NCBI GenBank assembly: GCA_021159235.1
Contig: JAGGSF010000080.1
Location: forward strand, 1 to 40,051
DNA: 40,051 nt
Direction of reading: 5' to 3'
DNA from: Deltaproteobacteria bacterium
GTDB lineage: Bacteria > Campylobacterota_A > Desulfurellia > JAGGSF01
The position numbers and the translations under genes are program-made. Positions 2,723 through 28,993 of the stretch are shown one piece after another; the stretch's first letter is position 1; every line of letters starts with the position of its first letter. The notes under the pieces were generated by a model. That model did no database searches. It was given only the letters and a program-made list of their open reading frames with translations, and was not told the origin of the DNA.

Positions 2723-2811
2723 ATCATATTACTCCACGATTTAATTTTTCCGAAATGCAACATCATATATAATTCTATTTATGAAAAAGTAAAGTAAGAC
2801 TGAGTTATTTA

Positions 2812-5139
2812 TCAATAATAATATTCTGTTATTAAAGCAGGCATTTCTCTTTCAAAGACATAATCTTCATTTGTTCTAATAGAGGTAAGTTTATCAAAAA
2901 TTCCTATTTCTATCTCTTCTTCTTTAGAAGATACGGCTCTTAATTTTATGGACTCATTTGTCAAATCTAATTTTAACCGCTTACCTTTCCAGAATAAGGA
3001 AAAAATCATCCTCTTCCAGCTTCTTGGCATTCTTGGATCTATAAACAATCTTTCCTCTTTGATGCTTATCCCTGCAAAACCAAAAACAATTGCTTGCCAT
3101 GTTCCTCCCAGACAGGCGCCATGAATTCCATCTTTGGTATTTCCGTATAAATTATTGATGTCTATACATAAGGATACATTAAAGAGGTCATATGCTCGGT
3201 GCAGATCCCGACATTCAAGGGCTAATATTGAGTGTATAGAAGGACTCAGAGAGGATTTATGTAGTGTTCTTTTTATGTAAAAATCGTAGTTTACCTTTTT
3301 TGTCTTTAAATCAAAGTTATCCGATAACAGATACAGGAGCATGAGGGTATCTGCCTGCTTTACCAGTTGAGTTTTAGCCAACTCTTTGATTTTTAACCCC
3401 CTGGGAAGAACAGGCATACCGTTTTCATCTGTCTCCGTCAAAATAACCTTCTTCAATTTAAAGTATCCATCAAATTGCTCAATAACTCCTTCTTTGTTCA
3501 TATTTATAGATATTAGAGAAGCTACCTTTTTCCAGTTTTTTACCTCTTCACATTTCAATTTTAATTTTCTTTGCAGACGTTGAGAGACTGAAGGCGCATC
3601 TTCTCTGATTTTATAAAACATTTTGCGGGCAACTGTTAAATTCCATTTTGCCATCATATTAGTGTAGGCATTGTTGTTTACGTTTACATGGAACTCATCC
3701 GGACCGATGACATGGTTTATCTCATATCTATTTTTCTCTTTGTTGTATTCTGCTCTTGAAACCCAGAATCTCGCTGTTTCAAATAAGACTTCATAACCGT
3801 ATCTTTCCATGAATCTTTCATCACCGGTTGCAATAAAGTAGTTGTATACAGCATAGGCAATATCTGCAGTAATATGATGTTCCATTTTATGGGTATAAAC
3901 TTTTGTTATACTCCCATCGATATCTCTTGCCCAGGCAGGCGTCTCTTCTTCTCCAGTGTCTGCTGATTCCCAGGGAAACATTATCCCTCTAAATTTTAAT
4001 TTTTTAGCAATTTCCCTCGCTCTTTTTAATCTTGAACATCTGTATAACAGAATGTTTTTAGCAATCTTTGGCATTGTAAAGAGATAAAAGGGCATGAGGA
4101 ATATCTCTGCATCCCAGAATATATGTCCCCTGTATCCTTCGCCAGTTAGAGTTCTCGCACCAATGCTGGAGAAGCCATTATCTGCAGGAGCGCAGATAAG
4201 CATGTGATATATATTGAACCGTATATTCTGTTGCAAATCTGCCTTTCCTTCAACTAAAATACCTGCTTTTTGCCAGAGTTTCTCCCAGCTTTTTATATGC
4301 TCTTCAACAAGCACATCAAACTCCGTATGTAAAACCTTGTAGAATTTCTTGAATGCTTCCCTTTTATGTTTGACAATTTTGCTTTGAGATGGGAAACACT
4401 TTATACAGAATATCTTGGTGAATATAATGGTTTGACCCTTTTTTAATTTAATTTTGAGGATGCTGTCTTTGGCAAGGATTTTTCTACCGTTAATCTCATA
4501 ATAAAGACCACTCCAGTATACTATGGTGTGTTTTTTCTCCGGTGTTTGAACCAGTAAATATCCAGCATTTCGAAATTGTCCCAACTCTTTTATCCTGAAA
4601 TGCCGTTTTTGGCCTTCGGTAAGAATAGGGCCATTATAAACGGATGTGTCTATCTGTGTGTTTATATCTATTTCACAGGCACTATCCAGAGGAGTGAGAG
4701 CTATCTGCATTACACCGGTATTCTTGTTTTTCATAGAAACAAATCTCAAACATTGATAATCAAACCGATGCTCCTTGCTACTTTGGTATAAGGTATGACG
4801 CAGAAGAAGTCCCTTTTTAAGATTGAGTATTCTTTGATGCTTAAGAACATCCATTATTCCCAAGGCTATTTTTTCTCCTTCTGCAGTAGCTGTAAAATTG
4901 AATGGATTGGGAAGATTAACCAGCTCAGCAACCTGGGAAAACATTTTGTCGTATACGCCGGCGATATATGTTCCCGGCATAGCACCAAGGGGAATCTCTT
5001 CTAATACTGCCCTTACACCTAAGTATCCATTGCCCAAAGAAAACAGAGCTTCGTGAATATTCTGTAGAGAATGTTCCCACTTATTTTCCTTTATAAGCCA
5101 TGAATCATCATCAATATAATGGGAGTAAAAACCTTTCAT
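2812..5139 (-). CDS. Glycoside hydrolase family 65 disaccharide phosphorylase (kojibiose/trehalose/maltose phosphorylase type)
   Basis: 775 aa, the usual GH65 size and domain order. The N-terminal LFSLGNGYLGVR motif and the central (alpha/alpha)6 region (GHIFWDAEIF, NNNAYTN) are GH65-like. The start overlaps the upstream beta-PGM stop as ATGA, the classic phosphorylase/beta-PGM pairing. Confidence 0.85.
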   Translation of the reverse strand: MKGFYSHYIDDDSWLIKENKWEHSLQNIHEALFSLGNGYLGVRAVLEEIPLGAMPGTYIAGVYDKMFSQVAELVNLPNPFNFTATAEGEKIALGIMDVLKHQRILNLKKGLLLRHTLYQSSKEHRFDYQCLRFVSMKNKNTGVMQIALTPLDSACEIDINTQIDTSVYNGPILTEGQKRHFRIKELGQFRNAGYLLVQTPEKKHTIVYWSGLYYEINGRKILAKDSILKIKLKKGQTIIFTKIFCIKCFPSQSKIVKHKREAFKKFYKVLHTEFDVLVEEHIKSWEKLWQKAGILVEGKADLQQNIRFNIYHMLICAPADNGFSSIGARTLTGEGYRGHIFWDAEIFLMPFYLFTMPKIAKNILLYRCSRLKRAREIAKKLKFRGIMFPWESADTGEEETPAWARDIDGSITKVYTHKMEHHITADIAYAVYNYFIATGDERFMERYGYEVLFETARFWVSRAEYNKEKNRYEINHVIGPDEFHVNVNNNAYTNMMAKWNLTVARKMFYKIREDAPSVSQRLQRKLKLKCEEVKNWKKVASLISINMNKEGVIEQFDGYFKLKKVILTETDENGMPVLPRGLKIKELAKTQLVKQADTLMLLYLLSDNFDLKTKKVNYDFYIKRTLHKSSLSPSIHSILALECRDLHRAYDLFNVSLCIDINNLYGNTKDGIHGACLGGTWQAIVFGFAGISIKEERLFIDPRMPRSWKRMIFSLFWKGKRLKLDLTNESIKLRAVSSKEEEIEIGIFDKLTSIRTNEDYVFEREMPALITEYYY

Positions 5140-5789
5140 GATGAGACCAGTTGTTTCAACTGTTCGATACTTATCTGACTTACATCGGATATCACTAAAT
5201 CAGCTTCTTTTAACCTCTCTGGGTTGTTATACCTGTCTATTCCAATGCATTTTGTGCCCGCTGTTTTTGCTGCTTCTACACCCAATACTGCATCTTCAAA
5301 CACCACACATCGTTCTGGAGTTGAGTTTAGTCTGTCAATAGCCAGTAGAAAGGCATCGGGATGAGGTTTCCCCCTTTTTATATCGTTACCGGTAATTATT
5401 ACATCAAATAGGTTATCTATATTAGCCTTCTTCAAGATATAAAGGCAGTTTTTGCTGGAAGAGATTACTGCCACTTTTATACCTTCTTTCCTTAAGTTTT
5501 TTATTAAATTTAATGTGCTTTCATAAACCTTTACTCCTTCTTTCTCTAAAAACTCCAGGAAATAGTCTTGTTTCTTTGAAGCTGCTTTTTTTAATTCTTC
5601 TTGTGACAAATGAGACAGAATGGCTCTTGCTCCATCTATTCTGGGTATGCCATCTACTTTTTCTTTGTAATCTTGAAAGCTAAAATCTTTTCCGTATTCA
5701 GAAAACATCTTCTTCCAGGCTTTAAAGTGTAAAGGAACTGTATCTACAACAACTCCGTCTAAATCAAATATCACCGCTTCTAAACTCAT
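5136..5789 (-). CDS. pgmB: Beta-phosphoglucomutase (HAD superfamily)
   Basis: 217 aa. HAD motif I is FDLDGVVVDT and the C-terminal motif is FEDAVLGVEAAKTAG. It is translationally coupled to the GH65 phosphorylase. Confidence 0.75.
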   Translation of the reverse strand: MSLEAVIFDLDGVVVDTVPLHFKAWKKMFSEYGKDFSFQDYKEKVDGIPRIDGARAILSHLSQEELKKAASKKQDYFLEFLEKEGVKVYESTLNLIKNLRKEGIKVAVISSSKNCLYILKKANIDNLFDVIITGNDIKRGKPHPDAFLLAIDRLNSTPERCVVFEDAVLGVEAAKTAGTKCIGIDRYNNPERLKEADLVISDVSQISIEQLKQLVSS

Positions 5790-12849: not shown

Positions 12850-13314
12850 ATGGAAGAGGAAGCAAAAAGGGTAAAGTTTTACAAAGCTCAGGTCTGGGGG
12901 CAGATAGAGGAAAAATCCATCCCCTCCAGATATATGAAAAACAGGATTATTCTCTTGTCGGTTGATCCCTATCATCTATTTACATCCTGGGAAGTGATGG
13001 AAAAACCGCCTTTTATAATCAGAGTATTTGATTTTACCCGCAGGTTTTTTCCGCAGTACAATGAAGTCTTTTCATTTAAAGTAGAAAGTGATGTAGGAAA
13101 CTGGTATATGAATGGAAAACCCTCGGCTGTCTATCTTGCTCAGATAGGTAAGGTAAAAGAGGGGAAATTTATCCTGATTGCTCAATCAAACATTGTTCAG
13201 ATGCCCAATGGCTCTGTATCCACCAGCAGGATATGTATGGAGATGAGAAAGATAAGGATAGAGGAAAAAAAGATACTTAAAGAGGAAAAAATGGAACACG
13301 CTTATGAAAGATGA
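12850..13314 (+). CDS. DUF4912-like protein (usual companion of GH57 branching enzymes)
   Basis: 154 aa. The segment IPSRYMKNRIILLSVDPYHLFTSWEV resembles the conserved DUF4912 core. It overlaps the downstream GH57 gene by 11 nt. Confidence 0.6.
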   Translation: MEEEAKRVKFYKAQVWGQIEEKSIPSRYMKNRIILLSVDPYHLFTSWEVMEKPPFIIRVFDFTRRFFPQYNEVFSFKVESDVGNWYMNGKPSAVYLAQIGKVKEGKFILIAQSNIVQMPNGSVSTSRICMEMRKIRIEEKKILKEEKMEHAYER

Positions 13315-14890
13315 CTTGGGTTTTTTAAATCTGGTTTTGCATGCCCACCTTCCTTATGTTCGCCATCCTGAATTTGATGATTTTCTGGAGGAGGATTGGT
13401 TTTACGAGGCATTGTGGGAAACATATATTCCATTTATAGATATGCTGGAAAGATTATGTTATGAAGATGTGGACTTTAGTATAACACTCAGTCTGTCTCC
13501 TACCCTGTGTTCTATGATGGAAGATGAACTGTTAACAGAGAGATTTTTAAGAAAAATGGAAAATTTGAAAGGGCTTATCTTTAAGGAGAAAGAGAGACTG
13601 AAGAACACTGCGTTTGAAAAATCTGTAGGAATGTATGAGAAGAGGATGAAAAAGATAGAAGAGATAATTTCACGCTACAATCCTGTTACGAAAGCATTTA
13701 AAAGATTTTTTGAAGAAAAAAAACTGAATCTCATCACAACATCTGCTACCCATATCTTTATGCCGCATCTGCGATATGCAGGAAAAGCAAACGAAGCACA
13801 GATAAAAATAGGAATTGAGTATTTAAAAACTGTATTCGGTAGAAGACCGAAGGGCTTTTGGCTACCTGAATGTGGATATTACAGGGGTGTGGAAGATATA
13901 CTGGAGAAGGAAGGTGTGGAGTATTTCTTTGGGGAAACACACTGCATCATGTATGCAGACCACTATCCAAAGAGGGGTGTCTACGCACCGATGTTTACAG
14001 AAAACGGTGTTGCTTGCTTTGCAAGGGATACAGAATCTTCCAGGCAGGTGTGGAGTGCAAGGGAAGGTTATCCTGGAGATTTTGATTACAGGGAATTCTA
14101 CAGAGATGTAGGATTTGATGCTCCTTATGATTACATAAGACCCTACTTGCATAAAGATGGTGTAAGGGGAAACACGGGATTGAAATATTACAGAATCACG
14201 GGCAGTAATGTAGATTTAGGAAAGAAAGAACCATACGATCCTGAAGCTGCCAGAAAAAAGACGATCATCCATGCAGAAGACTTTTTATTCAATAGGCAGA
14301 AGCAGATGAAATATTTAAATACCATTTATAACAGAAAGCCCATCATAAATGCATTCTACGATATGGAGTTGTTTGGTCATTGGTGGTGGGAAGGGATAGA
14401 CTTCTTAGAGGAGGTAATAAGAAAAATAGAGAGATTCAACATAAAACTTATAACGCCGGATGAGTATTTGGATGTGTATCCTGAAAATCAGGTAAGCAGG
14501 TTGAATGAATCCAGCTGGGGATGGAAGGGATATGGAGAGACATGGTTAAACGGAACAAACGATTGGATATACAGACATCTGTACGAAATGGAAGACAGAA
14601 TGGAAGAGATGGCAAAAAAATACAAGGACACAAAAGATAAGAGAATATTATTTATACTGTCTCAGATGGCAAGAGAACTGCTGTTAGCTCAATCCTCCGA
14701 TTGGTTATTTATCATGCATGAAGGCAGTTGCCGCCAGTATGCAGAAAGAAGAGAAAAACTGCATATAAACAGGTTCAATCACATGTATGAAAACCTGAAG
14801 AAAAACTTCATAGATGTGGAATTTGCTGAAGAGAGTTATAAAAAAGACAATATCTTTCCAGCCTTGAACTGGAAGGTCTATGCATGTTAA
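13304..14890 (+). CDS. GH57 family 1,4-alpha-glucan branching enzyme
   Basis: 528 aa. The N-terminal GFLNLVLHAHLPYVRHPE motif, WLPECGY, and a C-terminal helical domain (DUF1957-like, SSDWLFIM) match the GH57 branching enzymes characterised in Thermus and Thermococcus. Confidence 0.85.
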   Translation: MKDDLGFLNLVLHAHLPYVRHPEFDDFLEEDWFYEALWETYIPFIDMLERLCYEDVDFSITLSLSPTLCSMMEDELLTERFLRKMENLKGLIFKEKERLKNTAFEKSVGMYEKRMKKIEEIISRYNPVTKAFKRFFEEKKLNLITTSATHIFMPHLRYAGKANEAQIKIGIEYLKTVFGRRPKGFWLPECGYYRGVEDILEKEGVEYFFGETHCIMYADHYPKRGVYAPMFTENGVACFARDTESSRQVWSAREGYPGDFDYREFYRDVGFDAPYDYIRPYLHKDGVRGNTGLKYYRITGSNVDLGKKEPYDPEAARKKTIIHAEDFLFNRQKQMKYLNTIYNRKPIINAFYDMELFGHWWWEGIDFLEEVIRKIERFNIKLITPDEYLDVYPENQVSRLNESSWGWKGYGETWLNGTNDWIYRHLYEMEDRMEEMAKKYKDTKDKRILFILSQMARELLLAQSSDWLFIMHEGSCRQYAERREKLHINRFNHMYENLKKNFIDVEFAEESYKKDNIFPALNWKVYAC

Positions 14891-16959
14891 AAATAGGAAT
14901 AATCTTTTTATTCCTTGTTTTCTCTTCTTATTCCTTTGCACAGGAAATTCACATTGAAGCAGATAACATCACCTATTACGAAAAACAAAAACTCTATATT
15001 GGAGAGGGGCATTGTGTTGTTAAAAGAGAAGATGCAACATTAAAAGCGGACAAAATAGATCTTAACAAGGAAACAGGCATCACCCATGTTAAAGGCAATG
15101 TAGAATTTCATTCAGGTGACGATTGGATAAAAGGGAAAAAAGGCACAGTAAATGTAAATCTGTGGAAAGGGTTTATTGAAGATGCTACCTTATTTCTCTC
15201 CAGAGATTTTTTATGGATAAAGGCAAAAAAGATTGTTATTTTAGATAAAACACGCTTCTACGCAGAAAATAGTGCGCTTACCTCCTGCTTTTGTGAAAAC
15301 TGGTTGAAGGGGAAGGGTGCTCATCCCAAATGGACCTTTCATGCCAGAAAAGCTTATGTAGTAAGAGATAAATATCTAAAGGCTTATCCCTTGATTTTTA
15401 AAACAAGAGGCGTGCCTGTGTTTGGACTGCCATATATATATCGTAATTTAAACAGAAAGAGGAGAACAGGATTCTTAACCCCTTCTTTTGGGTATTCCTC
15501 CCGGGGAGGATTTAAATATAGGCAACCATTTTTTCTGGTTTTATCCGATTCTCAAGATGCTACTTTCACATATAATCATGCAGGAAGAAAGGGCAATGGA
15601 GTGGATGTAGAATATAGATATTTCTGGACTAAAGATAGTTTTGGTCAGTGGCATGCTACGTTTTTCAAGGAGAAAAAACCGTATGGGGCAAGTGATAAAA
15701 AATCTCTCCGTTACAATGTGCATGTCAAGCATACTCAGGATTTAGAAAAATACGGTATCATCAGATCCGATATAAATCATTTGAGTGATAGAAATAACTA
15801 TCACGTATTTAAAGATGATGAGCTTTCTTTGACCAGTGAAAGGTATGTAACCAGCAAGTTGTGGTGGGAATGGCACAAGGGTGAATATAAACTGTCCATA
15901 AACAATTATTATTATGAGGATCTACTTTCAGAAAACAACAAAAGGACACTGCAGAAATATCCACAGTTTGAGGCTTCAATAACGGAAAAAAAGATACCAT
16001 CCACGCCATTTTATCTGAATACCTCAACCTACTTAACAAGAAATTACAGGAAAGAAGGAGAAAAAGGATGGGTGTATTCATTGTACCCCTCTTTAAAAGC
16101 ACCTTTTTCCATTTATCAGTTCAGCTTTTTGCCGGAGGGAAAACTGTATTATGATTACAGCTGGTGGAAAGATGAAAATGGCGAAAGACACCATAAGGGA
16201 AGAACAATCCCCGAGGGTATATTCACCGTAAGCGCCACGCTGGAAAGAATATGGTTCACAAATAAAGAGAGCACAGAAGGTATAAGACACAGAATCATTC
16301 CTCAAATCTCCTACGATTATATTCCTTACAGAGACCAGAGTGAACTGCCCGATTTTATATCCCGCAAGAGCAAGGAAAATGTATTAACCTTTAGTCTGGA
16401 AAACAGGATCACACAGAAAAAAAGCGGTAGATATTTTGATCCTCTATATGTGAAATTTTCTCAACCCTTTAACATAAACAAAAAACGCCTTCATCAGAAT
16501 CCATTTGAACCATTCTATATAGAAGGTGTATATAAGCCTACAGATACATTTTCCTTTGACTGGAAAGCCTATTATTCTACGAGAAAAGGTCTTTTTACAC
16601 AGAGCAGCGAAAATGCGCACCTGAATGTGGGCATCTTGAAGTTTTCCACCGGCTATGTGATGAACAGGGATTCCGGTTACCTGTTGAGCGATGAGTCGTG
16701 GAGTGGAAGACTGGACATATATCCACAATCAGGGTTGAATATTTTCTATTCATTTGAAAAAAATTTAAGATATGGATACTTCCCTCAGAAACGGTTCGGC
16801 ATAAACTACATGGAGGACTGCTGGGGCATAAGCCTGCAAACATATATAAATGAAACGATGGAAGAAAATAGAGAAGGTATTAAAGAGAGAAAGAAAAATA
16901 TGGGTATATGGTTTATGTTCACTTTGAAGTCCATCGGCTCGTGGGGTAAAAGGGTATGA
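14884..16959 (+). CDS. lptD: LPS-assembly outer membrane protein LptD (OstA family)
   Basis: 691 aa. Signal peptide MLKIGIIFLFLVFSSYSFA/QE, an OstA-like N-terminal domain (IEADNITYYEKQKLYIGEGHCVV...KADKIDLNKETG), and a long aromatic-rich beta-barrel-like C-terminus. Confidence 0.8.
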   Translation: MLKIGIIFLFLVFSSYSFAQEIHIEADNITYYEKQKLYIGEGHCVVKREDATLKADKIDLNKETGITHVKGNVEFHSGDDWIKGKKGTVNVNLWKGFIEDATLFLSRDFLWIKAKKIVILDKTRFYAENSALTSCFCENWLKGKGAHPKWTFHARKAYVVRDKYLKAYPLIFKTRGVPVFGLPYIYRNLNRKRRTGFLTPSFGYSSRGGFKYRQPFFLVLSDSQDATFTYNHAGRKGNGVDVEYRYFWTKDSFGQWHATFFKEKKPYGASDKKSLRYNVHVKHTQDLEKYGIIRSDINHLSDRNNYHVFKDDELSLTSERYVTSKLWWEWHKGEYKLSINNYYYEDLLSENNKRTLQKYPQFEASITEKKIPSTPFYLNTSTYLTRNYRKEGEKGWVYSLYPSLKAPFSIYQFSFLPEGKLYYDYSWWKDENGERHHKGRTIPEGIFTVSATLERIWFTNKESTEGIRHRIIPQISYDYIPYRDQSELPDFISRKSKENVLTFSLENRITQKKSGRYFDPLYVKFSQPFNINKKRLHQNPFEPFYIEGVYKPTDTFSFDWKAYYSTRKGLFTQSSENAHLNVGILKFSTGYVMNRDSGYLLSDESWSGRLDIYPQSGLNIFYSFEKNLRYGYFPQKRFGINYMEDCWGISLQTYINETMEENREGIKERKKNMGIWFMFTLKSIGSWGKRV

Positions 16960-19688: not shown

Positions 19689-20672
19689 CTATAGTAATCC
19701 TCCATAGCCCAGGTTGTAGATCTCCTCTTCTGTAGGTCTCTCACCTGTTGCAATACGGGGTAGTATAAGATCCAGTGACGACCTGCTACTGCATATGGCA
19801 CCTGCAGGTATGCCAAGGATTACCACCTTTTCGACATAACCGATACTCAAGTAATTGCCAGGCTGAACGGGAAGGCCACGAAAAAATGTTCTGGCTTTAT
19901 CTTTTATCGCCAGATATGTTACATCATCGGGGTCTACAGATGCGCCACCTGTTATCAGTATTACCTCACATCCAAGTTTAATGGATTTTTCTATCTCCAT
20001 CTCTATCACTTCCTTTTTATCTGGCGCTTTTGCAGTATGGATAACATTACAGTTGCAAATACTTTTTATCTTACGTTTCAAAAGAGGTGTAAATGTGTCC
20101 TTTATCCTTCCATAGAAAACTTCGTTGCCTGTGGCGATGATGCCTGTATTTTTTTTCAAAAAAGGCTTGACAGAAACTATACCTCCTCTGGCTATTTCCT
20201 TTGCTCTTTCAATAATCTTCCTTGATGTAAACAGTCCCAAGATGCGCACAGAGGCAATTTTCTGCCCTTTTTCTACTATTTTATTTGAAGGTAAAGTGGG
20301 ACAACTGGGAACTTTTAGTAGATTGAATTGAAGGAGTTTTTCTCTGTCTACCTTTGTCAATCCTTTGAAGGAGGAGTATATATTTATCTTTCCCTCTGAA
20401 GGCTGCCTGTCTCTGTATGTTCCTTCTCCCATTAAACTTTCTGCTAACTCAATTGCCGCATCGTCTTCATGTATTTCGTCAGGCGAGAGGTTGATAGTAT
20501 ATACATGTTCTTTCCCTAAACGCTTGAATTTCTCAACGTCTCCTTTCTGAATTATATATCCTCTTTTAAATAAAGGACCCTTGAATCTTTTCTCTGTGTC
20601 TACAAGTGTTACATCATGTGCCAATGGTTTGCCGATCGCCTGCTCTATCTTGATTTTTTCAATGCGACTCAA
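19689..20672 (-). CDS. MoeA-like / MoCF-biosynthesis (molybdopterin-binding) domain protein, function unknown
   Basis: 327 aa. The N-terminal AIGKPLAHDV resembles the MoeA domain I/II entry. The central GIIATGNEV...ILITGGASVDPDDVT matches the MoeA/MogA/CinA-type molybdopterin-binding fold. It is shorter than canonical MoeA (no domain IV). TTG start overlaps the upstream gene by 14 nt. Confidence 0.55.
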   Translation of the reverse strand: MSRIEKIKIEQAIGKPLAHDVTLVDTEKRFKGPLFKRGYIIQKGDVEKFKRLGKEHVYTINLSPDEIHEDDAAIELAESLMGEGTYRDRQPSEGKINIYSSFKGLTKVDREKLLQFNLLKVPSCPTLPSNKIVEKGQKIASVRILGLFTSRKIIERAKEIARGGIVSVKPFLKKNTGIIATGNEVFYGRIKDTFTPLLKRKIKSICNCNVIHTAKAPDKKEVIEMEIEKSIKLGCEVILITGGASVDPDDVTYLAIKDKARTFFRGLPVQPGNYLSIGYVEKVVILGIPAGAICSSRSSLDLILPRIATGERPTEEEIYNLGYGGLL

Positions 20673-21363
20673 AACATATCCTCTTTAAACCTAAGAGTTT
20701 TTGTGCTGAGGCAATGGTCACACCATAGAATATAACAATTCTGCTTTTGTTATCCTCCTTAAATGTCTTTATTATTTCATCGATCTTTCCATCAGCGATT
20801 GTATTGCCATTTGCTAGAGTTAAGAAAGAGCCTGCTACAATATCTTTCATGTTTCTTTCGTCTTCTATTAGAACACCGTAAAAATTTTTATCCTTATTTT
20901 TACCATCACATATCCTTATATTTTCCTTCCCTATTTTTTTTATCAGAGCTTCAGCGATGATGGGTTGTAATCCCACCATCCCTACGGTAAGAAACATGCC
21001 GTATCTACGAGAAAAACCATAAGCTATTCTCTGTGCACATCTTTTAGCCTCTTTTCCATTGCAGTGCACTGTTCCTTCTATTAGATTCAGATGCTTTAAG
21101 ACGGCATTGGTGCAAGCTATAAACAGTGCTCGATTTTCAGATGTATTTAAATCTATATTTAATATATCTTCTATTTTACCCTGAAAGTTTATAGCACCTG
21201 TGCTGAATGCCTGTCCCTTATTTCCTTTAAAATCTGCTTCTATCAGCGTTTCTTCTTCATGGGGCGAAGACAGGTGGGTTTTAACCTCAATATTTTCATG
21301 CTGGAGACTGTTTTTTTCCACAATGTTTATAAAATTTTCCTTTAATTCTTCAATCATGCTCAT
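20659..21363 (-). CDS. Hypothetical protein, Rossmann-like C-terminal half (possibly DUF364-like), function unknown
   Basis: 234 aa from ATG 21363, 1 nt after the upstream stop (TAAAATG). The track start, TTG 21378, would give 239 aa. Coding is supported by the tight packing and sense-strand consistency. The family assignment rests only on a loose resemblance (FLTVGMVGLQPIIAEALIKK..., AGSFLTLANGNTIADGKIDEII) to DUF364-type proteins. Confidence 0.6.
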   Translation of the reverse strand: MSMIEELKENFINIVEKNSLQHENIEVKTHLSSPHEEETLIEADFKGNKGQAFSTGAINFQGKIEDILNIDLNTSENRALFIACTNAVLKHLNLIEGTVHCNGKEAKRCAQRIAYGFSRRYGMFLTVGMVGLQPIIAEALIKKIGKENIRICDGKNKDKNFYGVLIEDERNMKDIVAGSFLTLANGNTIADGKIDEIIKTFKEDNKSRIVIFYGVTIASAQKLLGLKRICFESH

Positions 21364-21364
21364 T

Positions 21365-22495
21365 TTATAGATTATCAAGCTGTCTATAGGAAATTGCTTG
21401 TTCTGTGTTCATTGAAGTTTTTAGAAAATCATCAAACCAGTAAGCGTCTTTATTTGTTTTGAAAACCATAAGTTGCGATGCATTTTCCAGACCTGGAGAA
21501 CGATGATATTGCATATAGATGTGTTCTGGTGTTGTTCCCACTACTTCAATCTTTCCTGTGGAATGAGACATTATAAAGCGCGCCCTTCCAGCCAGACCGG
21601 AAACCTGCATCCTTGCTTTTCTAAATATCTCATAAGATTCAACTACTGGCACAGCATAAATTCTGTTTCCCAGTGTAGGGCGACACTGAAACACATAGTA
21701 TGAAGATACACCCATAAAGGAAAGTCTACGAAATAGCTCTGCTAAAGTATCAGGGTTATCGTTAACTCCTCTGATGAGCGGTGTTTGATTGACGACAACT
21801 GTACTTGCTTCTAACAGTCGTGTAATGGCGTCAATGCTGACAGGAGTTAACTCTCTGGGATGGTTGAAATTTGTCACTATATAGATGCGTTTTTGAGGTA
21901 AACTGTATCGGCTCAGCATTTCAATTAAAGATGGATCTTCTGTAATCCTGTATGGATTAAACGCAGGTATTTTTGTCCCTATACGAATAATCTTTACATG
22001 TTCAATGCAGCGTATCCTTTGTATAAAATCTTCCAGTTTTCTTGTAGACATAATCAGTGGGTCACCACCCGATAAGAGAACATTGGTAATCTCAGAATGA
22101 TTTCGGAGATATTGCATACTTGGAGAAACATTGTGAGTTACCTCACTATCTCCATTCATAAATAAGCGCTTACGAAAGCAAAAACGGCAGAATCCTCCGC
22201 ACATATTGTTGACAAGCAAAAGAGCTGTATCTGGATATTTATGTTCCAATCCTGCTGCTTTTACATAATGTGCCTCTTTGGAGGCATCGAGCCTGCCCCA
22301 TGGTATCAGTTCTCCTTCATGGGGAACAATTATCCGTCTGATAGGGTCATTTTCATTTGACCAATCAATTAAGGATAAGTAATAATCATTAGCCCTGAAT
22401 GCAAATTTTTTTGTAACCTCTTTTAATATTCGCCGTTGCTCAATGGGAATTTGAGTAACCTGCAGAATATCGGTAATATATCTAATCTTCTTCAC
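21365..22495 (-). CDS. KamA-family radical SAM protein (amino acid 2,3-aminomutase-like), substrate unknown
   Basis: 376 aa. KamA N-terminal motif DYYLSLIDWSNENDPIRRIIVP, radical SAM CGGFCRFC (C99/C103/C106), GGDPL, and a candidate PLP lysine in STGK. GTG start with AAGGAAG SD. Confidence 0.85.
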   Translation of the reverse strand: MKKIRYITDILQVTQIPIEQRRILKEVTKKFAFRANDYYLSLIDWSNENDPIRRIIVPHEGELIPWGRLDASKEAHYVKAAGLEHKYPDTALLLVNNMCGGFCRFCFRKRLFMNGDSEVTHNVSPSMQYLRNHSEITNVLLSGGDPLIMSTRKLEDFIQRIRCIEHVKIIRIGTKIPAFNPYRITEDPSLIEMLSRYSLPQKRIYIVTNFNHPRELTPVSIDAITRLLEASTVVVNQTPLIRGVNDNPDTLAELFRRLSFMGVSSYYVFQCRPTLGNRIYAVPVVESYEIFRKARMQVSGLAGRARFIMSHSTGKIEVVGTTPEHIYMQYHRSPGLENASQLMVFKTNKDAYWFDDFLKTSMNTEQAISYRQLDNL

Positions 22496-22522: not shown

Positions 22523-22551
22523 ATTTTATTTATTTTTATTGCGCCTGTCAA
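22523..22551 (-). promoter_or_regulatory. Sigma70-like promoter candidate for the KamA-like cassette
   Basis: Minus strand: TTGACA (22551-22546), 17 nt, TAAAAT (22528-22523), about 27 nt upstream of the GTG at 22495. Confidence 0.45.
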
Positions 22552-22614: not shown

Positions 22615-23289
22615 TCAGGCGAAGCGTTTTGTTAGATGTTTAATATTTTCAACAAAAAATGCAAGAAGTTCAGGGTCAAAGCAATGGCTGTTTTCTTTCA
22701 TAATCCGTAAGGCTGCTTCAGGCTTAAACGCAGGGCGATAAGGCCTGTTACTTGTTAGCGCATCATAACAATCGGCAATTCGGAGTATCCGCGCAACCAA
22801 GGGAATTTCATCCCCTTTTAATCCCTCGGGATAACCACTCCCGTCAAAATTTTCATGATGATATAGGATAGCATTTCCTATTAACTCATCAAAGAGTAAA
22901 GGCCTGATAAGATTATATCCCAATTTCGTGTGATGTTTAATCATGATAAACTCAGCTTCTGTCAACTTAGTCGGCTTATTTAAGATTTGTTCATTTATAC
23001 CCATTTTTCCAATGTCATGAAGCAGGCCTGCTCGATATATCACCGGAATCTTTTCTTTCGGAAAATTTAACTGGTGGTTTAAAGTAACAAAATTTACTGC
23101 CATCTTAGCTACATGTTCTGAATGTCCTTTCGTATACGGATCTCTTAATTCAAGAGCTCGAGATAGAAGGAGGGATGTTCGTTCAATTACTTCCGATAAC
23201 TCAATAACCTTCTTTCGTTCAATCTTTATTTTTTCTTGTTGCTCGGCGATGGTTTGTTGCTGCTCCCTTATTTTATCATGTTCAGTCAT
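22615..23289 (-). CDS. HD-GYP domain protein (likely cyclic-di-GMP phosphodiesterase) with an N-terminal coiled coil
   Basis: 224 aa. Motifs HSEHVA, LLHDIGKMG and HHENFDGSGYPEGLKG. GAGGAGA SD. Confidence 0.85.
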   Translation of the reverse strand: MTEHDKIREQQQTIAEQQEKIKIERKKVIELSEVIERTSLLLSRALELRDPYTKGHSEHVAKMAVNFVTLNHQLNFPKEKIPVIYRAGLLHDIGKMGINEQILNKPTKLTEAEFIMIKHHTKLGYNLIRPLLFDELIGNAILYHHENFDGSGYPEGLKGDEIPLVARILRIADCYDALTSNRPYRPAFKPEAALRIMKENSHCFDPELLAFFVENIKHLTKRFA

Positions 23290-23330
23290 GTTTCTATCTC
23301 CTCATAGCATTTAACTGTATAATTCACTCT

Positions 23331-23366
23331 TTAAAGCTACATTACTATTTAAAGCTACATTACTAT
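23331..23366. repeat. Perfect 18-bp tandem direct repeat (2 copies) in the HD-GYP upstream region
   Basis: TTAAAGCTACATTACTAT occurs at 23331-23348 and again at 23349-23366. This is 42-77 nt upstream of the HD-GYP start codon (23289) on the minus strand. Confidence 0.95.
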
Positions 23367-23381
23367 CCCTCATAATTTCTG

Positions 23382-24161
23382 TCAAGAAAAGCTCTTTAAG
23401 CACCTTAAAAACAATATAACTTCTTTGCTACTCCTACAGAAATAGCGGGCTTTTGAATATTTTTTATAACCGACTACGATAGATATATCATCTTCTCTCA
23501 GCACCTTAAATGCATCTTCATCCGTTCTGTCATCGCCTATGTAAATTTTTAATATTTCTTCTCTCAGATTAAGCAGATGTTTCATCTTTATTACTGCCTT
23601 TCCTTTATCCCAGTTGATATTTGGTCTTACCTCATAAACCTTTTTCCCGGAGGTTATTCTCAATGTCTCATGGTAGGGACCGATGATATTCTGAATGATT
23701 TTTTTTATATCCTTCGCAGGTCTTCCTGCGACATTGCGGTAATGAACACTTAAGGTCAGACCTTTGTCTTCAATCAGAATGCCATCTATTGTATTTAATT
23801 GTACCTTTAATTTTTTGACAACATTTTTTAGAAGGGGTTTTGTTCTCTCTGCCTCCGGATGCACCCAACAATGTTCTTTATAAGAAATTTCAAAGCCGTG
23901 ATTCCCGGCATATATTATACCTTCAATCCCTATGAGATCTTTCACTTCACTTAATGAGCGACCGCTGATAATACCTATGGAGATACATGGATTTTGGGAA
24001 AGATCGATCAAAAGCTTTCTTGTTTCAGGTGAAAGTTTAGCTAATGATGGGTCTTTGCAGATAGGCACCAGTGTTCCATCATAATCCAGGCACAACAAGA
24101 TATGTTTGTTTCTTGTTTTATTCTTTATTTCAGAGAAAGAGTTAAACAGATATTTTTTCAC
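23382..24161 (-). CDS. otsB: Trehalose-6-phosphate phosphatase
   Basis: 259 aa. HAD motif I LCLDYDGTLVPI, the trehalose-phosphatase type cap, and IGDDRTDEDAF. The GTG start overlaps the upstream stop (GTGA). Confidence 0.85.
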   Translation of the reverse strand: MKKYLFNSFSEIKNKTRNKHILLCLDYDGTLVPICKDPSLAKLSPETRKLLIDLSQNPCISIGIISGRSLSEVKDLIGIEGIIYAGNHGFEISYKEHCWVHPEAERTKPLLKNVVKKLKVQLNTIDGILIEDKGLTLSVHYRNVAGRPAKDIKKIIQNIIGPYHETLRITSGKKVYEVRPNINWDKGKAVIKMKHLLNLREEILKIYIGDDRTDEDAFKVLREDDISIVVGYKKYSKARYFCRSSKEVILFLRCLKSFS

Positions 24162-25378
24162 AGGTATACTATATCTTCCTTACGATACAACGATAAAAAT
24201 AACAAAAGATAATCACGAATGTGTCTGGTAATAAGAAAATTGTCCTTTATATGTTCTCTTCCGTTTTCCCCCAACTTTTTTGCATATTCGGGATCACTTA
24301 AGAGTTGTTTTATCCAGTAAGCTGTTCCTTCTATGGTATGGGTTAGTATGCCAGAATATCCATGTATAATCTGTAATGGTATGCCTCCCACAGCAGATGC
24401 AATTACCGGTTTTGCCTTCCATAAGGCCTCGGAAACGGTGAGTCCAAAGCCCTCGCGTAAGGATTTCTGAAGTATAATAGTTGAACCTCTTTGCAGGGCA
24501 TTTATCTCTAAATGAGAAGCGGGAGAAAGATGCAATACAAATATATCCTTGTCCTGTTTTGCTTCTTCCATTACCGCCTTAAGCACCTTTTTACCCTCCG
24601 GATCATCTGTTGCTCCACCTCCGGCTAAAACAAGCTGACAATCCATGTGTTTTTTTACAAGACGATAGGCCCTTATTACACCTACAGGATCTTTTAAATA
24701 ATCAAACCTTGAAATTTGGGTTATAACGGGCTTCTCTCTATCAATACCATATCCTTCAAAAACAGAGTCTATGAATTTTTCAGGTAAATCTCTATTTTTC
24801 TCACTCAAAGGATCTATGGAAGGAGAGATGAGAATCTGTTTAGTAGAGATATCTCGACCAAATGTAGGAGCGGAGAAGACAACGGTATCATATTTTTCAA
24901 TGTAGCTTTTCAGAAATGACCAAATACGCTTATTGGGATTGGAAAAGTCGATATGACATCGCCAGATCCAGTTCCTTCCTATTTTATTTCTTTTTTCAAT
25001 AAGTGCAGCAGGTTGAGGATCATGAACAAATATTATGTCACCGTAAAAGTCTATCTCCTCTGCATTTTTTTGGTTGACATCCAAAAAGTAATTTAGTTCA
25101 TCATCTGTAATTTCTACCCTTGCAGAGTGAAGGGCGTTGTGTATCTTTTTGCTTATCACAAAGAATTTTTCATCACCCTTTATAACGTCCCATCCTACAT
25201 TCACACCCAGCTCTTTTAAAAGTGGTATTATTCTGGTTAATATCTCTGCTACTCCACCACCCACAGCAGTAGAATTTATGTTCTGAATCGTTTTTCCAGA
25301 AATCCTATCCGCTAAAAGGTGCAACTCATCAATTATCTCATCTCCAACAATTTTTCTATATTCGCCTAACTTAATCAT
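24158..25378 (-). CDS. TreT-like GT4 glycosyltransferase (trehalose glycosyltransferring synthase family)
   Basis: The N-terminus MIKLGEYRKIVGDEIIDEL...INSTAVGGGVAEILTRIIPLLKELGVNVGWDVIKGDEKFF...HNALH resembles archaeal TreT as I recall it. The C-terminal motif is LREGFGLTVSEALWKAKPVIASAVGGIP. I chose the ATG at 25378, 2 nt after the upstream stop, with an AAGGA SD. The track start at 25501 would overlap the upstream gene by 121 nt. Confidence 0.7.
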   Translation of the reverse strand: MIKLGEYRKIVGDEIIDELHLLADRISGKTIQNINSTAVGGGVAEILTRIIPLLKELGVNVGWDVIKGDEKFFVISKKIHNALHSARVEITDDELNYFLDVNQKNAEEIDFYGDIIFVHDPQPAALIEKRNKIGRNWIWRCHIDFSNPNKRIWSFLKSYIEKYDTVVFSAPTFGRDISTKQILISPSIDPLSEKNRDLPEKFIDSVFEGYGIDREKPVITQISRFDYLKDPVGVIRAYRLVKKHMDCQLVLAGGGATDDPEGKKVLKAVMEEAKQDKDIFVLHLSPASHLEINALQRGSTIILQKSLREGFGLTVSEALWKAKPVIASAVGGIPLQIIHGYSGILTHTIEGTAYWIKQLLSDPEYAKKLGENGREHIKDNFLITRHIRDYLLLFLSLYRKEDIVYL

Positions 25379-25380
25379 TT

Positions 25381-26019
25381 TTAGTTTTCCTTGCAGATGA
25401 TAGAGATTATCTTTTCTCTCAATCCTTCCAGTGTGTATGTGTAAGGATCTAAATGGGAAATTTCTGCGGCGATTCTGTCTTTGCCTAAGTCTCTTAGCCA
25501 TCTGGAAAAGTCGTTGTCCACCTTTCCCAACCTTATCCGGGCCTCAAAGATGTGAAAGTAAAGAGAACTCTTTGATATCTTCCTCAAGATTTCTTTAAAC
25601 TCTTTTAGGTTATGAGCAATATAAGGTGTGGGTAAGATAAATGTTTTGCAAGCCATGAAGTGAAATTCACTGCCTTCGGTACAATTTCTAACCGGTCTGT
25701 TTTTGTCTATGTGCTCTTCTAAGATTTCAATGAACCTATTTCTCAACTCTCTTATGCTTGGAAAGTCGACTATATCTACACTGCCGATTTCTTCTCCCAG
25801 GGTTTTTTCCTCCAGTACATCGCTGATCCAGTAGGCAAAATCATTGGCTGGTTCCGGTAGTAGATAATGGTGCTGTTCCAGGAACTTATGGGTGTGATAA
25901 AAGATGGAGGAATCAGGGACAACCTTTATTCCCTCCAGAAGTTCTATCACATTTTTAGATTTCTTGTTTAAAATTTCTACCAGGTTAAATTGGGTATGAA
26001 AGTAAAATGGTTCAGCCAT
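25381..26019 (-). CDS. Hypothetical protein (212 aa), no recognisable family
   Basis: The ORF fits exactly between otsA (stop, 1 nt, then ATG: TGAAATG) and the TreT-like gene. GGAAGAA SD. The predicted product is soluble, with no motif I can name. Confidence 0.65.
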   Translation of the reverse strand: MAEPFYFHTQFNLVEILNKKSKNVIELLEGIKVVPDSSIFYHTHKFLEQHHYLLPEPANDFAYWISDVLEEKTLGEEIGSVDIVDFPSIRELRNRFIEILEEHIDKNRPVRNCTEGSEFHFMACKTFILPTPYIAHNLKEFKEILRKISKSSLYFHIFEARIRLGKVDNDFSRWLRDLGKDRIAAEISHLDPYTYTLEGLREKIISIICKEN

Positions 26020-26020
26020 T

Positions 26021-27538
26021 TCAAATTTCTTCCAGACCAAGTTTAAAAATCTCGGATAAAATCTTAGCCGTCCAGCGATAGATGTTGTTTTCTTTTACAA
26101 TTTCTCTCATTCTCTGCATCCTCTTTTCCTTTTCCTCTTGGTCCATCTCCAGCGCCTTCTTTATCGTGTCTGCAAACTGGTCTGTGGCGAAAGGATTTAT
26201 AAGCAATGCTGTCTCAAGTTCTCGAGCAGAACCCGTAAATCTACTCAAAATTAAAACACCATCATTATCCCATCTGGATGCGACAAACTCCTTGGCAACG
26301 AGATTCATCCCGTCATGAAGGGAACTGACAATGCATACATCCGCCAAGCGATAGTAGTTTATCAGGTCTTGTTGACAGAAATGAGTCTTACGCAATATGA
26401 TAGGTTGCCAATCTTTGAACTGGTATTTTTCGTTGATTTCAACCATCAGGTGATATACCTCGTCATTATAGTTCTTGTACTGTTGAAGATGAATGCGAGA
26501 AAGGGGGCCTAATTGAAGAAAGGTGAAGCGACCGAGATACTGGGGATATTTTTCAAAAAATCTATCAATTGCCCTAAATCGTTCCAAGATACCCTTTGTA
26601 TAATCAATCCTATCTACACCTATACCTATAAACCTGTTCTTTAATCTGTAATCCCTTTTTATTCTTTTGATATTTTCCTCAACCTCTGGCTTTTTTGACA
26701 TATTTTCTATTCTTTCAAAATCCACACCTATGGGGAATGGTCTGATCAGTGTTTCCTTCTCACGATGAGTTACAGAAGATCTTTCCCGATCTACCTTTGC
26801 TTCAATGAAATGATCTACTGTATCTAAAAAATTTTGACAGTGATAGCGAATATGAAAACCTAACAGATCGTTTCCTAAAAGACCTTCTAATATTTCATTA
26901 CCCCAGGGACATATTCTGAATGTCTCTTCATTGGGCCAGGGAATATGCCAGAACTGAGCAACTGTAATATCCGGCCTTCTGTCTTTGAGAATTTTAGAAA
27001 GCAGGGCGAAATGATAATCCTGGATAAAAACAAAACCCTCATCTTCTCCCATCTCCTCCAGTACAATTTCGGCGAATTTTTCATTTACCTTCCGGTACAT
27101 ATCCCAGTCCGATTTTCTAAAAACAGGCATGGTGTAGGCATTGTGACAGAGTGGCCATAATCCTTCATTGGCAAATCCAAAATAATATCCATTTACTTCC
27201 TCTTTATTCAACCAGACCCTTCTCAGTGTATAACTGGGATTTTCTGGGGGAACCTGAATGTGGTCGTTTGAATCCACAACATCTTTGTCTGCTTCACCGG
27301 AGCCGTGGGCAACCCATGTTCCTCCACAGATCTGCATTACGGTGTTTAATGCCAGTGCCATGCCACTGACAGGCATAACGCACCTGATTTCATCTTCAAA
27401 GAATCTGTGAAGGTAGGGTTCTCTGTTGGATACAATTATAAACCTATATGATCCTATCTTTGTTTTGACTACTTCTCTTAACTTATCTTTATCCCATACC
27501 ACTTTTATTATTCTATTTGCTTTCTGGATAACTGTCAA
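26021..27538 (-). CDS. otsA: Alpha,alpha-trehalose-phosphate synthase (GT20)
   Basis: 505 aa. Contains FIIVSNREPY, GFANEGLWPLCH, the GT20 core, and DGMNLVAKEF. The only in-frame start upstream of the conserved N-terminus is TTG 27538, 1 nt after the thrC stop (GTG 27502 is the alternative). Confidence 0.88.
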   Translation of the reverse strand: MTVIQKANRIIKVVWDKDKLREVVKTKIGSYRFIIVSNREPYLHRFFEDEIRCVMPVSGMALALNTVMQICGGTWVAHGSGEADKDVVDSNDHIQVPPENPSYTLRRVWLNKEEVNGYYFGFANEGLWPLCHNAYTMPVFRKSDWDMYRKVNEKFAEIVLEEMGEDEGFVFIQDYHFALLSKILKDRRPDITVAQFWHIPWPNEETFRICPWGNEILEGLLGNDLLGFHIRYHCQNFLDTVDHFIEAKVDRERSSVTHREKETLIRPFPIGVDFERIENMSKKPEVEENIKRIKRDYRLKNRFIGIGVDRIDYTKGILERFRAIDRFFEKYPQYLGRFTFLQLGPLSRIHLQQYKNYNDEVYHLMVEINEKYQFKDWQPIILRKTHFCQQDLINYYRLADVCIVSSLHDGMNLVAKEFVASRWDNDGVLILSRFTGSARELETALLINPFATDQFADTIKKALEMDQEEKEKRMQRMREIVKENNIYRWTAKILSEIFKLGLEEI

Positions 27539-27539
27539 T

Positions 27540-28913
27540 CTATCTCAGTGCATGTTGTTCGATAAATGTTTTCACTTTCTTAATGGAAGCATCGATAACG
27601 GTAAATCTCTCTTTCTTTTTCTCTATATCTTGTAGAGAAGGTGGTATGGGTGGAAACATACCTATACTTTCTTTTACAGGTTTTTGAAATTTTGCAGGAT
27701 GGGCGGTAGCTAAACAGATTAGTGGTTTTTCCTTATCTCTAAGTTTTCTTCCCACCCTCACTCCAACTGCAGTATGAGGATCGAGAATGTATCCCGTTTC
27801 TCTGTAAAAGTCTCTTATCTCTTCTATTGTTTCAGTTTCTGAAGCCTTTGCAGAGAGGAAATCTACTTGAACTGTTTGTAACCTCTGTTTGTCTATCTTT
27901 ATCTCTCCATATTTAGAAAATGTGTCCATCAGTTGTCTTACTTTTTCACCGTCTTCATCAAACAGGTAATACAGGTAACGCTCAAAATTGCTGGCTATCT
28001 GTATATCCATGGAGGGGCTTATGGTATTTACAACCTTGCCCTTTTTGTAGATGCCCGTGTTTACGAATTTTGACAGTATATCATTTTCATTCGTAGCGAG
28101 GATGAGTTTGTCTATATTGAGCCCCATTCTTTTGGCTATAAAACCAGCAAAGATATTACCGAAATTGCCCGTGGGAACACTGAAGTAAACAGAACCTTCA
28201 GTGGAAATCTGAAAATAGGCGTAAAAATAGTAGATGATTTGAGCTAAAATGCGCGTCCAGTTTATGGAATTTACTGCTCCCAACATGTATTTTTTCTTAA
28301 ACTCACTGTCGGAGAATATCTTTTTTACAATGTACTGGCAGTCATCAAATGAACCCTTTATAGCAATACAGAATACATTTTTGTCTTTTACCGTAGTCAT
28401 CTGTTTTTGCTGGATGGGACTGACCTTTCCATAGGGGTAAAGGATGAATATATTCATATTCTTCTTACCCTTAATTCCTTCTATGGCTGCACTGCCTGTA
28501 TCACCGGATGTAGCTCCCAGTATATTCATCTTTTTCCCCTCTTCCTGCAAAATGTATTCAAATAGATTACCCAGAAATTGGAGGGCGATATCTTTAAAAG
28601 CAAGTGTTGGTCCATGGAATAGTTCTGCAATATATATACCGGCTTTTTTTACCACCGGCACAATCTTCTCCGTATCAAAAGAAGAATAACTCTTCTGAAT
28701 AAGTCTCCATAGTGTGTTTTCCTCTATCTCATCGCCGATATACATCTTCATTAGATAAAGTGCCAGCTCTTTAAAATTGAGCGAAGAAAGGTTCTCTTCA
28801 ACAACGGGGATATACTGAGGAACGAGTAAACCACCATCATCAGCAAGCCCCATCTTCACTGCTTGTATGAATGAGATATTCTTTACTTTGCTCCTTGTGC
28901 TTTTGTAAAGCAT
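27540..28913 (-). CDS. thrC: Threonine synthase (long, E. coli/plant-type)
   Basis: 457 aa. N-terminal YKSTRSK...SFIQAVKMGLADDGGLLVP, the PLP-lysine motif FHGPTLAFKD, and ATSGDTGSAA. Confidence 0.88.
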   Translation of the reverse strand: MLYKSTRSKVKNISFIQAVKMGLADDGGLLVPQYIPVVEENLSSLNFKELALYLMKMYIGDEIEENTLWRLIQKSYSSFDTEKIVPVVKKAGIYIAELFHGPTLAFKDIALQFLGNLFEYILQEEGKKMNILGATSGDTGSAAIEGIKGKKNMNIFILYPYGKVSPIQQKQMTTVKDKNVFCIAIKGSFDDCQYIVKKIFSDSEFKKKYMLGAVNSINWTRILAQIIYYFYAYFQISTEGSVYFSVPTGNFGNIFAGFIAKRMGLNIDKLILATNENDILSKFVNTGIYKKGKVVNTISPSMDIQIASNFERYLYYLFDEDGEKVRQLMDTFSKYGEIKIDKQRLQTVQVDFLSAKASETETIEEIRDFYRETGYILDPHTAVGVRVGRKLRDKEKPLICLATAHPAKFQKPVKESIGMFPPIPPSLQDIEKKKERFTVIDASIKKVKTFIEQHALR

Positions 28914-28918
28914 ACTAT

Positions 28919-28947
28919 AAATTAGTGGGAACGTAGTTTAAAGTCAA
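28919..28947 (-). promoter_or_regulatory. Promoter candidate abutting the thrC start codon (possible leaderless transcript)
   Basis: Minus strand: TTGACT (28947-28942), 17 nt, TAATTT (28924-28919), then 5 nt to the ATG at 28913. No SD. Confidence 0.3.
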
Positions 28948-28955
28948 TCTATTCA

Positions 28956-28984
28956 TTGACAAAAATACTGAATATGGATAGATT
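28956..28984 (+). promoter_or_regulatory. Sigma70-like promoter candidate for tRNA-Leu(CAG) (and probably metK-ahcY)
   Basis: TTGACA (28956-28961), 17 nt, TAGATT (28979-28984), 9 nt upstream of the mature tRNA 5' end. Confidence 0.45.
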
Positions 28985-28993
28985 AATTGAAAG

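Follow-up and report, generated by a model that had tools for sequence, protein, structure and literature searches.

A likely four-gene trehalose cassette, with an OrfY-TreT pair at its centre, beside thrC in a small bacterial genome

Introduction

Contig JAGGSF010000080.1 of the deltaproteobacterial assembly GCA_021159235.1 was analyzed over a stretch of 40,051 nucleotides (nt), hereafter the window, which raises a question about the organization of bacterial trehalose genes. Five consecutive open reading frames (ORFs) in the ORF listing, all on the minus strand, span positions 23382-28913: the threonine synthase gene thrC, the trehalose-6-phosphate synthase gene otsA, an ORF of 212 amino acids (aa), a gene for a GT4-family glycosyltransferase and the trehalose-6-phosphate phosphatase gene otsB. 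Does a gene of amino-acid biosynthesis lead a trehalose operon, why would such an operon encode two trehalose-forming glycosyltransferases, and what could be the part of the small ORF placed between them? A first-pass annotation had answered that thrC apparently heads the five genes, that the 212-aa ORF had no recognizable identity, and that the GT4 could be a regulatory or scaffolding subunit of OtsA, as reported in Thermoproteus tenax.

The analysis established which genes are present and where they start, how far the promoter is conserved, the synteny of the locus, the fold of the small protein (OrfY) and the gene fusions. The reading that we favor, and consider likely, is that otsA-orfY-treT-otsB, from 27502 to 23382 on the minus strand, form a four-gene trehalose cassette with its own promoter, in which OrfY is tied to TreT, the trehalose glycosyltransferring synthase encoded by the GT4 gene.

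Results

A candidate promoter and a start codon between thrC and otsA

A promoter scan of the whole 6.9-kb region placed its top sigma-70-like match, scoring 11/12, in the thrC/otsA gap (candidate otsA promoter, 27510-27538, minus strand). It consists of TTGACA (27538-27533), a 17-nt spacer and TAGAAT (27515-27510), and the earlier claim that the sole promoter-like element abuts the thrC ATG was therefore not borne out. The -35 hexamer begins with the TTG at 27538 that had been taken for the otsA start codon. We aligned this junction with those of four relatives, two of the same genus, one metagenome-assembled genome (MAG) and one from another genus of the same family. In all four, the TTG is followed by an in-frame TAA, and otsA begins with an ATG aligned with GTG 27502 of the window, which gives an OtsA of 493 aa. 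TTG 27538 was thus rejected as a start codon. Because otsA starts at GTG 27502, the thrC/otsA gap measures 37 nt and not the single nucleotide described at first.

The -35 hexamer is identical in the five genomes, which belong to two genera, and the -10 hexamer reads TAGAAT in four of them and TAAAAT in the fifth. Substitutions and an indel have accumulated in the 16-17-nt spacer and in the 6-7 nt ahead of the start codon; the coding flanks of the promoter vary too, while the hexamers are kept. A genome-wide scan of 2.25 million strand positions gave 76 sites of at least 11/12, where first-order Markov simulations gave 34-42, and the probability of finding one in any given 37-nt gap is about 0.001. 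In 12 of the 76 sites, an ORF of 100 codons or more starts 4-10 nt after the -10 hexamer, so that a short-leader or leaderless geometry recurs in this genome. An Rfam scan of the window returned transfer RNAs (tRNAs) only, and thus neither a riboswitch nor another known RNA ahead of the cassette. Altogether, these comparisons suggest that a sigma-70-type promoter located in the 37-nt gap probably drives the cassette.

The other junctions are as tight as first described. On the minus strand, the otsA stop TGA (26023-26021) is followed by a single A and then by the orfY ATG (26019); two A separate the orfY stop TAA (25383-25381) from the treT ATG (25378), a 2-nt gap; and the treT TGA and otsB GTG overlap by 4 nt in GTGA (24161-24158). 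The gene calls of a close relative show the same junctions, with proteins of 493, 211, 406 and 260 aa for OtsA, OrfY, TreT and OtsB, respectively. Two longer reading frames were rejected, one starting at ATG 25501 for treT (447 aa, for homologues of 406 aa) and one starting at TTG 26040 for orfY (219 aa, for homologues of 211-218 aa), since both would run into the upstream gene.

Family searches with Pfam and NCBIfam upheld the five minus-strand ORFs, their coordinates and their family assignments. otsA (26021-27502, start GTG 27502) encodes a GT20 trehalose-6-phosphate synthase of 493 aa, whose PF00982 match (414 bits) covers profile positions 2-471 of 473; among its 23 PDB matches, 18 are named trehalose-6-phosphate synthases, including the 17 best. 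otsB (23382-24161, GTG start, 259 aa) passes the equivalog cut-off of TIGR00685 with 157 bits for a threshold of 68, and matches PF02358 with 158 bits. The view of otsA, the 212-aa ORF, the GT4 gene and otsB as one tightly coupled unit with two trehalose-forming glycosyltransferases is hence supported.

The GT4 enzyme is a TreT

treT (24158-25378, minus strand, start ATG 25378) encodes a protein of 406 aa in which both the TreT-specific N-terminal domain (PF21269, 183 bits) and the GT1/GT4 C-terminal domain (PF00534, 90 bits) are present. It aligns over its full length with the two solved TreT structures, namely those of Thermoproteus uzoniensis (6ZJ4, 435 bits over residues 5-398) and Pyrococcus horikoshii (2X6Q, 349 bits). 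Its identity is 48.5% to the former and 43.8% to the latter, for 48.6% between the solved pair themselves. We defined 115 invariant columns as those identical in both solved TreTs and in four type-b TreTs. The window protein, which is of type-a, retains 100 of them, and the other 15 show mostly conservative exchanges (I/L/V, T/S, Y/F); type-a-specific changes include H33N, Q84H and G327A. The E-x7-E motif, EGFGLTVSE, is intact. With NF041139, the equivalog model of Thermococcales TreT, the protein scores 388 bits for a cut-off of 775; as this model is lineage-specific, the shortfall speaks to orthology with the Thermococcales enzyme and not to family membership.

In a maximum-likelihood tree, the window TreT falls in a supported type-a clade (100/99) of 83 sequences from many phyla, with a stem of 0.84 changes per site. 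Support is weak (80/56) for a grouping of T. uzoniensis TreT with the type-b clade, and the P. horikoshii enzyme stands outside both clades. Phylogenetic placement sets the GT4 in a TreT clade distinct from those of the two solved enzymes.

The first-pass annotation had represented correctly the paper behind the T. tenax comparison. That paper describes the msc-gt-tpsp operon and the complex between the glycosyltransferase and TPSP, a trehalose-phosphate synthase-phosphatase (TPS-TPP) (Zaparty et al. 2013, PMC3634074). The activator, TTX_1305, is a PimA-like GT4 of 387 aa, and its effect requires TPS and TPP to be fused in one polypeptide (PMC3634074). The analogy fails on these two defining features. 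No PimA structure is found among the 21 PDB matches of the window GT4 at E <= 0.001, and OtsA and OtsB are here separate proteins. Judged from its sequence, the GT4 is a full-length, ordinary TreT and not an activator of the T. tenax type.

The 212-aa ORF encodes OrfY

The small ORF (25381-26019, minus strand) had gone unrecognized. It is OrfY/DUF5752, with a PF19027 match of 227 bits for a cut-off of 23. An AlphaFold2 model built with 16 homologues reached a predicted local distance difference test score (pLDDT) of 87.5 and a predicted template modeling score (pTM) of 0.81. When this model was compared with the PDB using Foldseek, the sole significant match was 4CSO, the OrfY of T. tenax (E 1e-14, template modeling (TM) score 0.79), and the OrfY sequence profile matched the 4CSO sequence with an E-value of 5e-28. 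In T. tenax, orfY reportedly precedes treT.

The two halves of OrfY correspond to an internal duplication, their alignment scoring 67 versus 27 +/- 5 for shuffled sequences. Each repeat carries the pattern S-x-[YF]-[YFH]-H ... [ND]-D-F-x-x-W, whose core is common to the window copy, to a second copy in the same genome and to T. tenax OrfY. The window copy, about 27% identical to the T. tenax protein, falls in a separate subfamily that is highly conserved, identity staying at 50-66% across phyla. A literature search retrieved no paper naming OrfY or DUF5752, and a paper on trehalose in Sulfolobus acidocaldarius mentions no treT neighbour.

orfY travels with treT

An OrfY profile recovered a set of 83 loci from many phyla. 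In 82 of them treT lies directly after orfY on the same strand, 2-155 nt apart; in the exception (L010), treT is matched only in part. The one Ph-type TreT locus with enough flank (L032) has no orfY upstream. A same-strand otsA and/or otsB accompanies the pair in 63 of the 83 loci, both genes being present in 52, and the window order otsA-orfY-treT-otsB is found in 12. Since otsA or otsB accompany orfY-treT so regularly, two trehalose routes per operon are the rule for this module and not an oddity of the window.

A search of 1.84 billion representative sequences yielded 1009 DUF5752 clusters at 50% identity, and the best 150 of these 1009 representatives were surveyed for fusions. Fifteen distinct clusters are MscS-OrfY fusions, in which the PF00924 beta-domain is immediately followed by DUF5752. 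One fusion to a maltokinase-like domain (Mak_N_cap) was confirmed and three long N-terminal fusions resemble it by sequence, and one protein joins an OtsB-type phosphatase to OrfY. No OrfY-TreT fusion was present among the best 150 of the 1009. In three loci of Chloroflexota MAGs (L067, L071 and L081), a single MscS-OrfY ORF of 457-480 aa stands directly between otsA-otsB and treT, and a separate MscS gene lies just upstream of orfY in about ten further loci. The window operon contains neither an MscS gene nor an MscS fusion; the single MscS homologue of the genome, on contig C44, is unfused.

A second orfY-treT pair was found in the same genome, whose assembly (122 contigs, 1.127 Mb) has a completeness score of 100%. 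On the plus strand of contig C56, OrfYb (3693-4376) and TreTb (4363-5598) are 27% and 51% identical to the window copies, respectively, and each OrfY copy shares about 27-28% identity with T. tenax OrfY. There is no second otsA, otsB or thrC in the genome. In all genomes examined, each subtype of OrfY is paired with a TreT subtype of its own. As a separate observation, genes for a ferredoxin, an aldehyde:ferredoxin oxidoreductase and a pyridine-nucleotide-disulfide oxidoreductase precede orfYb-treTb on C56 (168-5598), with overlapping starts and stops, so that a trehalose synthase pair is tightly packed with genes for redox enzymes on a single strand.

thrC is a housekeeping neighbour

thrC (27540-28913, minus strand; TIGR00260, 321 bits for a cut-off of 167) is present in a single copy in the genome. 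It has no Shine-Dalgarno sequence and is separated by 80 nt (28914-28993, minus strand) from a divergent tRNA-Leu(CAG) gene. Three overlapping weak promoter candidates, scoring 8-9/12, lie between this gene and the thrC ATG. We do not claim a clean leaderless promoter for thrC, as the candidate abutting the ATG leaves no space for a transcription start.

The arrangement of a divergent metK, thrC-otsA-orfY-treT-otsB and a KamA-like gene is shared by the four family members compared (G000-G003), which represent two genera, and thrC adjoins otsA only in this bacterial family. Among the 83 loci thrC occurs in two, both from Desulfurellaceae-type MAGs. Other families of the class have a different orfY-treT subtype beside distant OtsA and OtsB (33-37% identity), without thrC. 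With the OtsA proteins of Eubacteriales and Aminicenantes MAGs that have the otsA-orfY-treT-otsB order, the window OtsA shares 59-65% identity, and with those of other families in its own class only 33-37%. From this distribution, the cassette was most likely acquired beside thrC by horizontal transfer in the ancestor of this small-genome family of Desulfurellaceae relatives. The proposal that thrC heads the operon is not supported, given the conserved promoter in the gap, the existence of the cassette without thrC in many phyla and an adjacency restricted to one family: thrC is a housekeeping neighbour outside the cassette.

Discussion

A working scheme for the cassette

From these data we infer promoter use, enzymatic activities, an OrfY-TreT interaction and a possible ligand, as follows. 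The cassette would be transcribed from its own promoter, possibly supplemented by read-through from thrC. OtsA would condense nucleoside-diphosphate-glucose (NDP-glucose) with glucose-6-phosphate, and OtsB would dephosphorylate the product to trehalose. TreT, acting as a catalytic GT4, would form trehalose from NDP-glucose and free glucose, the reverse reaction being also conceivable as in Thermococcales. Together, the two routes would tap both hexose pools. OrfY, translated just before TreT, would be made stoichiometrically with it and could act by direct binding, maybe as a sensor of trehalose.

Several points weigh against this scheme and must be set beside it. The -10 hexamer lies only 7 nt from GTG 27502, which has no Shine-Dalgarno sequence, unlike orfY, treT and a downstream HD-domain gene, which are preceded by purine-rich stretches; and leaderless GUG starts work poorly in some bacteria. 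The thrC/otsA gap contains no predicted terminator, so that read-through from thrC is possible beside the internal promoter. OtsA scores below the equivalog cut-offs of NCBIfam (TIGR02400, 424 bits for 565; PRK14501, 496 bits for 634), the glucosylglycerol-phosphate synthase model scoring it lower still, at 306 bits. The type-a clade of TreT holds no characterized member among the references placed in the tree and, being distinct and long-stemmed, could have shifted its acceptor specificity. As for OrfY, the depositors of 4CSO named the molecule 'OrfY protein, transcription factor', and work on T. tenax by Kouril and colleagues in 2008 reportedly found no function for it.

If the operon has a regulatory or scaffolding part at all, OrfY is a better candidate for it than the GT4. 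Its constant association with TreT suggests that OrfY is probably a regulator or accessory protein dedicated to TreT, perhaps one that senses trehalose. This last role is attractive because the fusion partners of OrfY and TreT share only trehalose, and because OrfY is built as a pseudo-twofold repeat. One could imagine that OrfY is a pseudo-twofold sensor whose two repeats match the two glucose halves of trehalose, which would, as a free protein, bind and tune its own TreT and, in the MscS fusions, couple the cytoplasmic trehalose level to channel gating. We hold this detailed form of the idea as tentative, and as less likely to be right than to be wrong. If true, OrfY would be a direct protein-level link between the synthesis of a compatible solute and its release, in many bacterial and archaeal phyla.

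Alternative explanations

One would also wonder whether TreT works mainly in reverse, converting trehalose and NDP to NDP-glucose and glucose for mobilization after a stress, with OrfY gating the direction or the timing and so preventing a futile cycle between the two routes. The literature describes TreT as reversible in Thermococcales, no other trehalose-degrading enzyme was found in the genome by tblastn and family searches, which were not systematic for trehalases, and the GH65 protein of the window matches kojibiose phosphorylase best and not trehalose phosphorylase. The tree, however, places the OrfY-linked TreT clades on the T. uzoniensis side, apart from P. horikoshii TreT. T. tenax has only a 'unidirectional', synthetic TreT pathway, and it would be wasteful to co-transcribe a degrading enzyme with OtsA and OtsB. 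We thus regard a mainly degradative TreT as unlikely.

The name given to 4CSO leads to another proposal, that OrfY is a DNA-binding transcription factor controlling the cassette and not a protein partner of TreT; operons often encode their own regulators. Against this, Pfam and Foldseek revealed no known DNA-binding fold in OrfY, 4CSO itself being the sole significant match, and the isoelectric point, 5.9 for the window protein, ranges from 5.3 to 9.3 across orthologues. Fusions to the cytoplasmic end of MscS and to trehalose-related enzymes would suit a soluble DNA binder poorly. The position of orfY directly before treT is fixed whatever the rest of the operon, and two divergent copies coexist in one genome, each with its own TreT. 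A transcription factor therefore seems to us somewhat less probable even than a reversed TreT.

Finally, the initial proposal that thrC leads a five-gene operon in which the GT4, without catalytic role, activates or scaffolds OtsA, like the glycosyltransferase of the T. tenax TPSP complex, can draw on co-directional genes with no terminator predicted from thrC to otsA, on a thrC-otsA adjacency in all four family members and on the T. tenax precedent of a GT4 activating trehalose-phosphate synthase, but we consider it very improbable, as a conserved promoter sits between thrC and otsA, the cassette is common without thrC, the T. tenax protein is PimA-like and requires a fused TPSP, and the window GT4 is a TreT with the invariant catalytic columns, next to unfused OtsA and OtsB.

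Significance for annotation and for the OrfY family

Returning to the four-gene cassette with its OrfY-TreT pair, two corrections of the annotation follow: otsA should begin at GTG 27502, and the 212-aa ORF should be named OrfY/DUF5752. What is new here is that the thrC fusion is refuted, that promoter and start codon are corrected, that the analogy with the T. tenax glycosyltransferase fails and that two divergent orfY-treT pairs coexist in a very small genome. These two pairs, in a genome of 1.13 Mb, offer natural partner-swap controls for the specificity of OrfY towards TreT. OrfY is very conserved and its structure is solved, and the question of its function concerns the whole family rather than this one locus.

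Other observations in the window

A stand-alone HD-GYP-type HD-domain gene (22615-23289, minus strand; PF13487 HD_5, 128 bits) lies downstream of otsB. Among the genomes compared, only that of the window has it in this place; in G001, G002, G003 and L001, otsB is followed directly by the KamA-like gene. As no terminator is predicted after otsB, this gene may be co-transcribed with the cassette. The 92-nt gap upstream of it contains an 18-nt tandem direct repeat (23326-23361) whose two copies are 94% identical.

Further downstream, a gene of the KamA family of radical SAM proteins (21365-22495) scores below every equivalog cut-off for specific aminomutases. A second 11/12 site, TTGACA-17-TAAAAT (22523-22551, minus strand), is located 27 nt upstream of its GTG.

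Elsewhere in the window, genes for a GH65 phosphorylase, a beta-phosphoglucomutase-like HAD protein and a further GT4 (1676-5789, minus strand) make up another disaccharide cluster. The GH65 protein (2812-5139) was considered as a trehalose phosphorylase, an assignment that is unsupported, its closest solved relative being kojibiose phosphorylase 3WIQ (604 bits). A GH57 branching enzyme is encoded at 13304-14890, and genes for alpha-glucans and disaccharides are dense for a genome of 1.13 Mb. Two ORFs have no Pfam match at E <= 1e-5: one of 691 aa directly after the GH57 gene (14884-16959, plus strand) and one of 239 aa (20659-21378, minus strand).

Comparison with known systems

Several parallels can be drawn with described trehalose systems. 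The otsBA operon of Escherichia coli, like the present cassette, has a GT20 synthase and a HAD phosphatase in one transcription unit. Unlike in E. coli, the order is here otsA...otsB with two genes in between, and OtsA stays below the equivalog cut-offs.

The TreT of Thermococcus litoralis and P. horikoshii, which is linked to a trehalose/maltose transporter, belongs to the same family as the window TreT and has the same conserved motifs. Unlike the window enzyme, however, the P. horikoshii clade is outside the OrfY-linked clades.

Two different loci of T. tenax are concerned. The msc-gt-tpsp operon resembles the window in combining genes of trehalose-phosphate synthesis with a GT4 gene, and its channel is echoed in other loci of the module, where MscS is either separate or fused to OrfY. 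It differs in that the GT4 of the window is a TreT, that OtsA and OtsB are separate proteins with two genes between theirs, and that no channel gene is present. The orfY-treT pair of T. tenax, where TreT is described as a separate 'unidirectional' pathway, shares with the window an OrfY/DUF5752 protein of the same fold encoded directly upstream of a TreT-family GT4. The window pair, unlike that of T. tenax, comes from a bacterium and is enclosed by otsA and otsB, and its TreT belongs to a separate clade.

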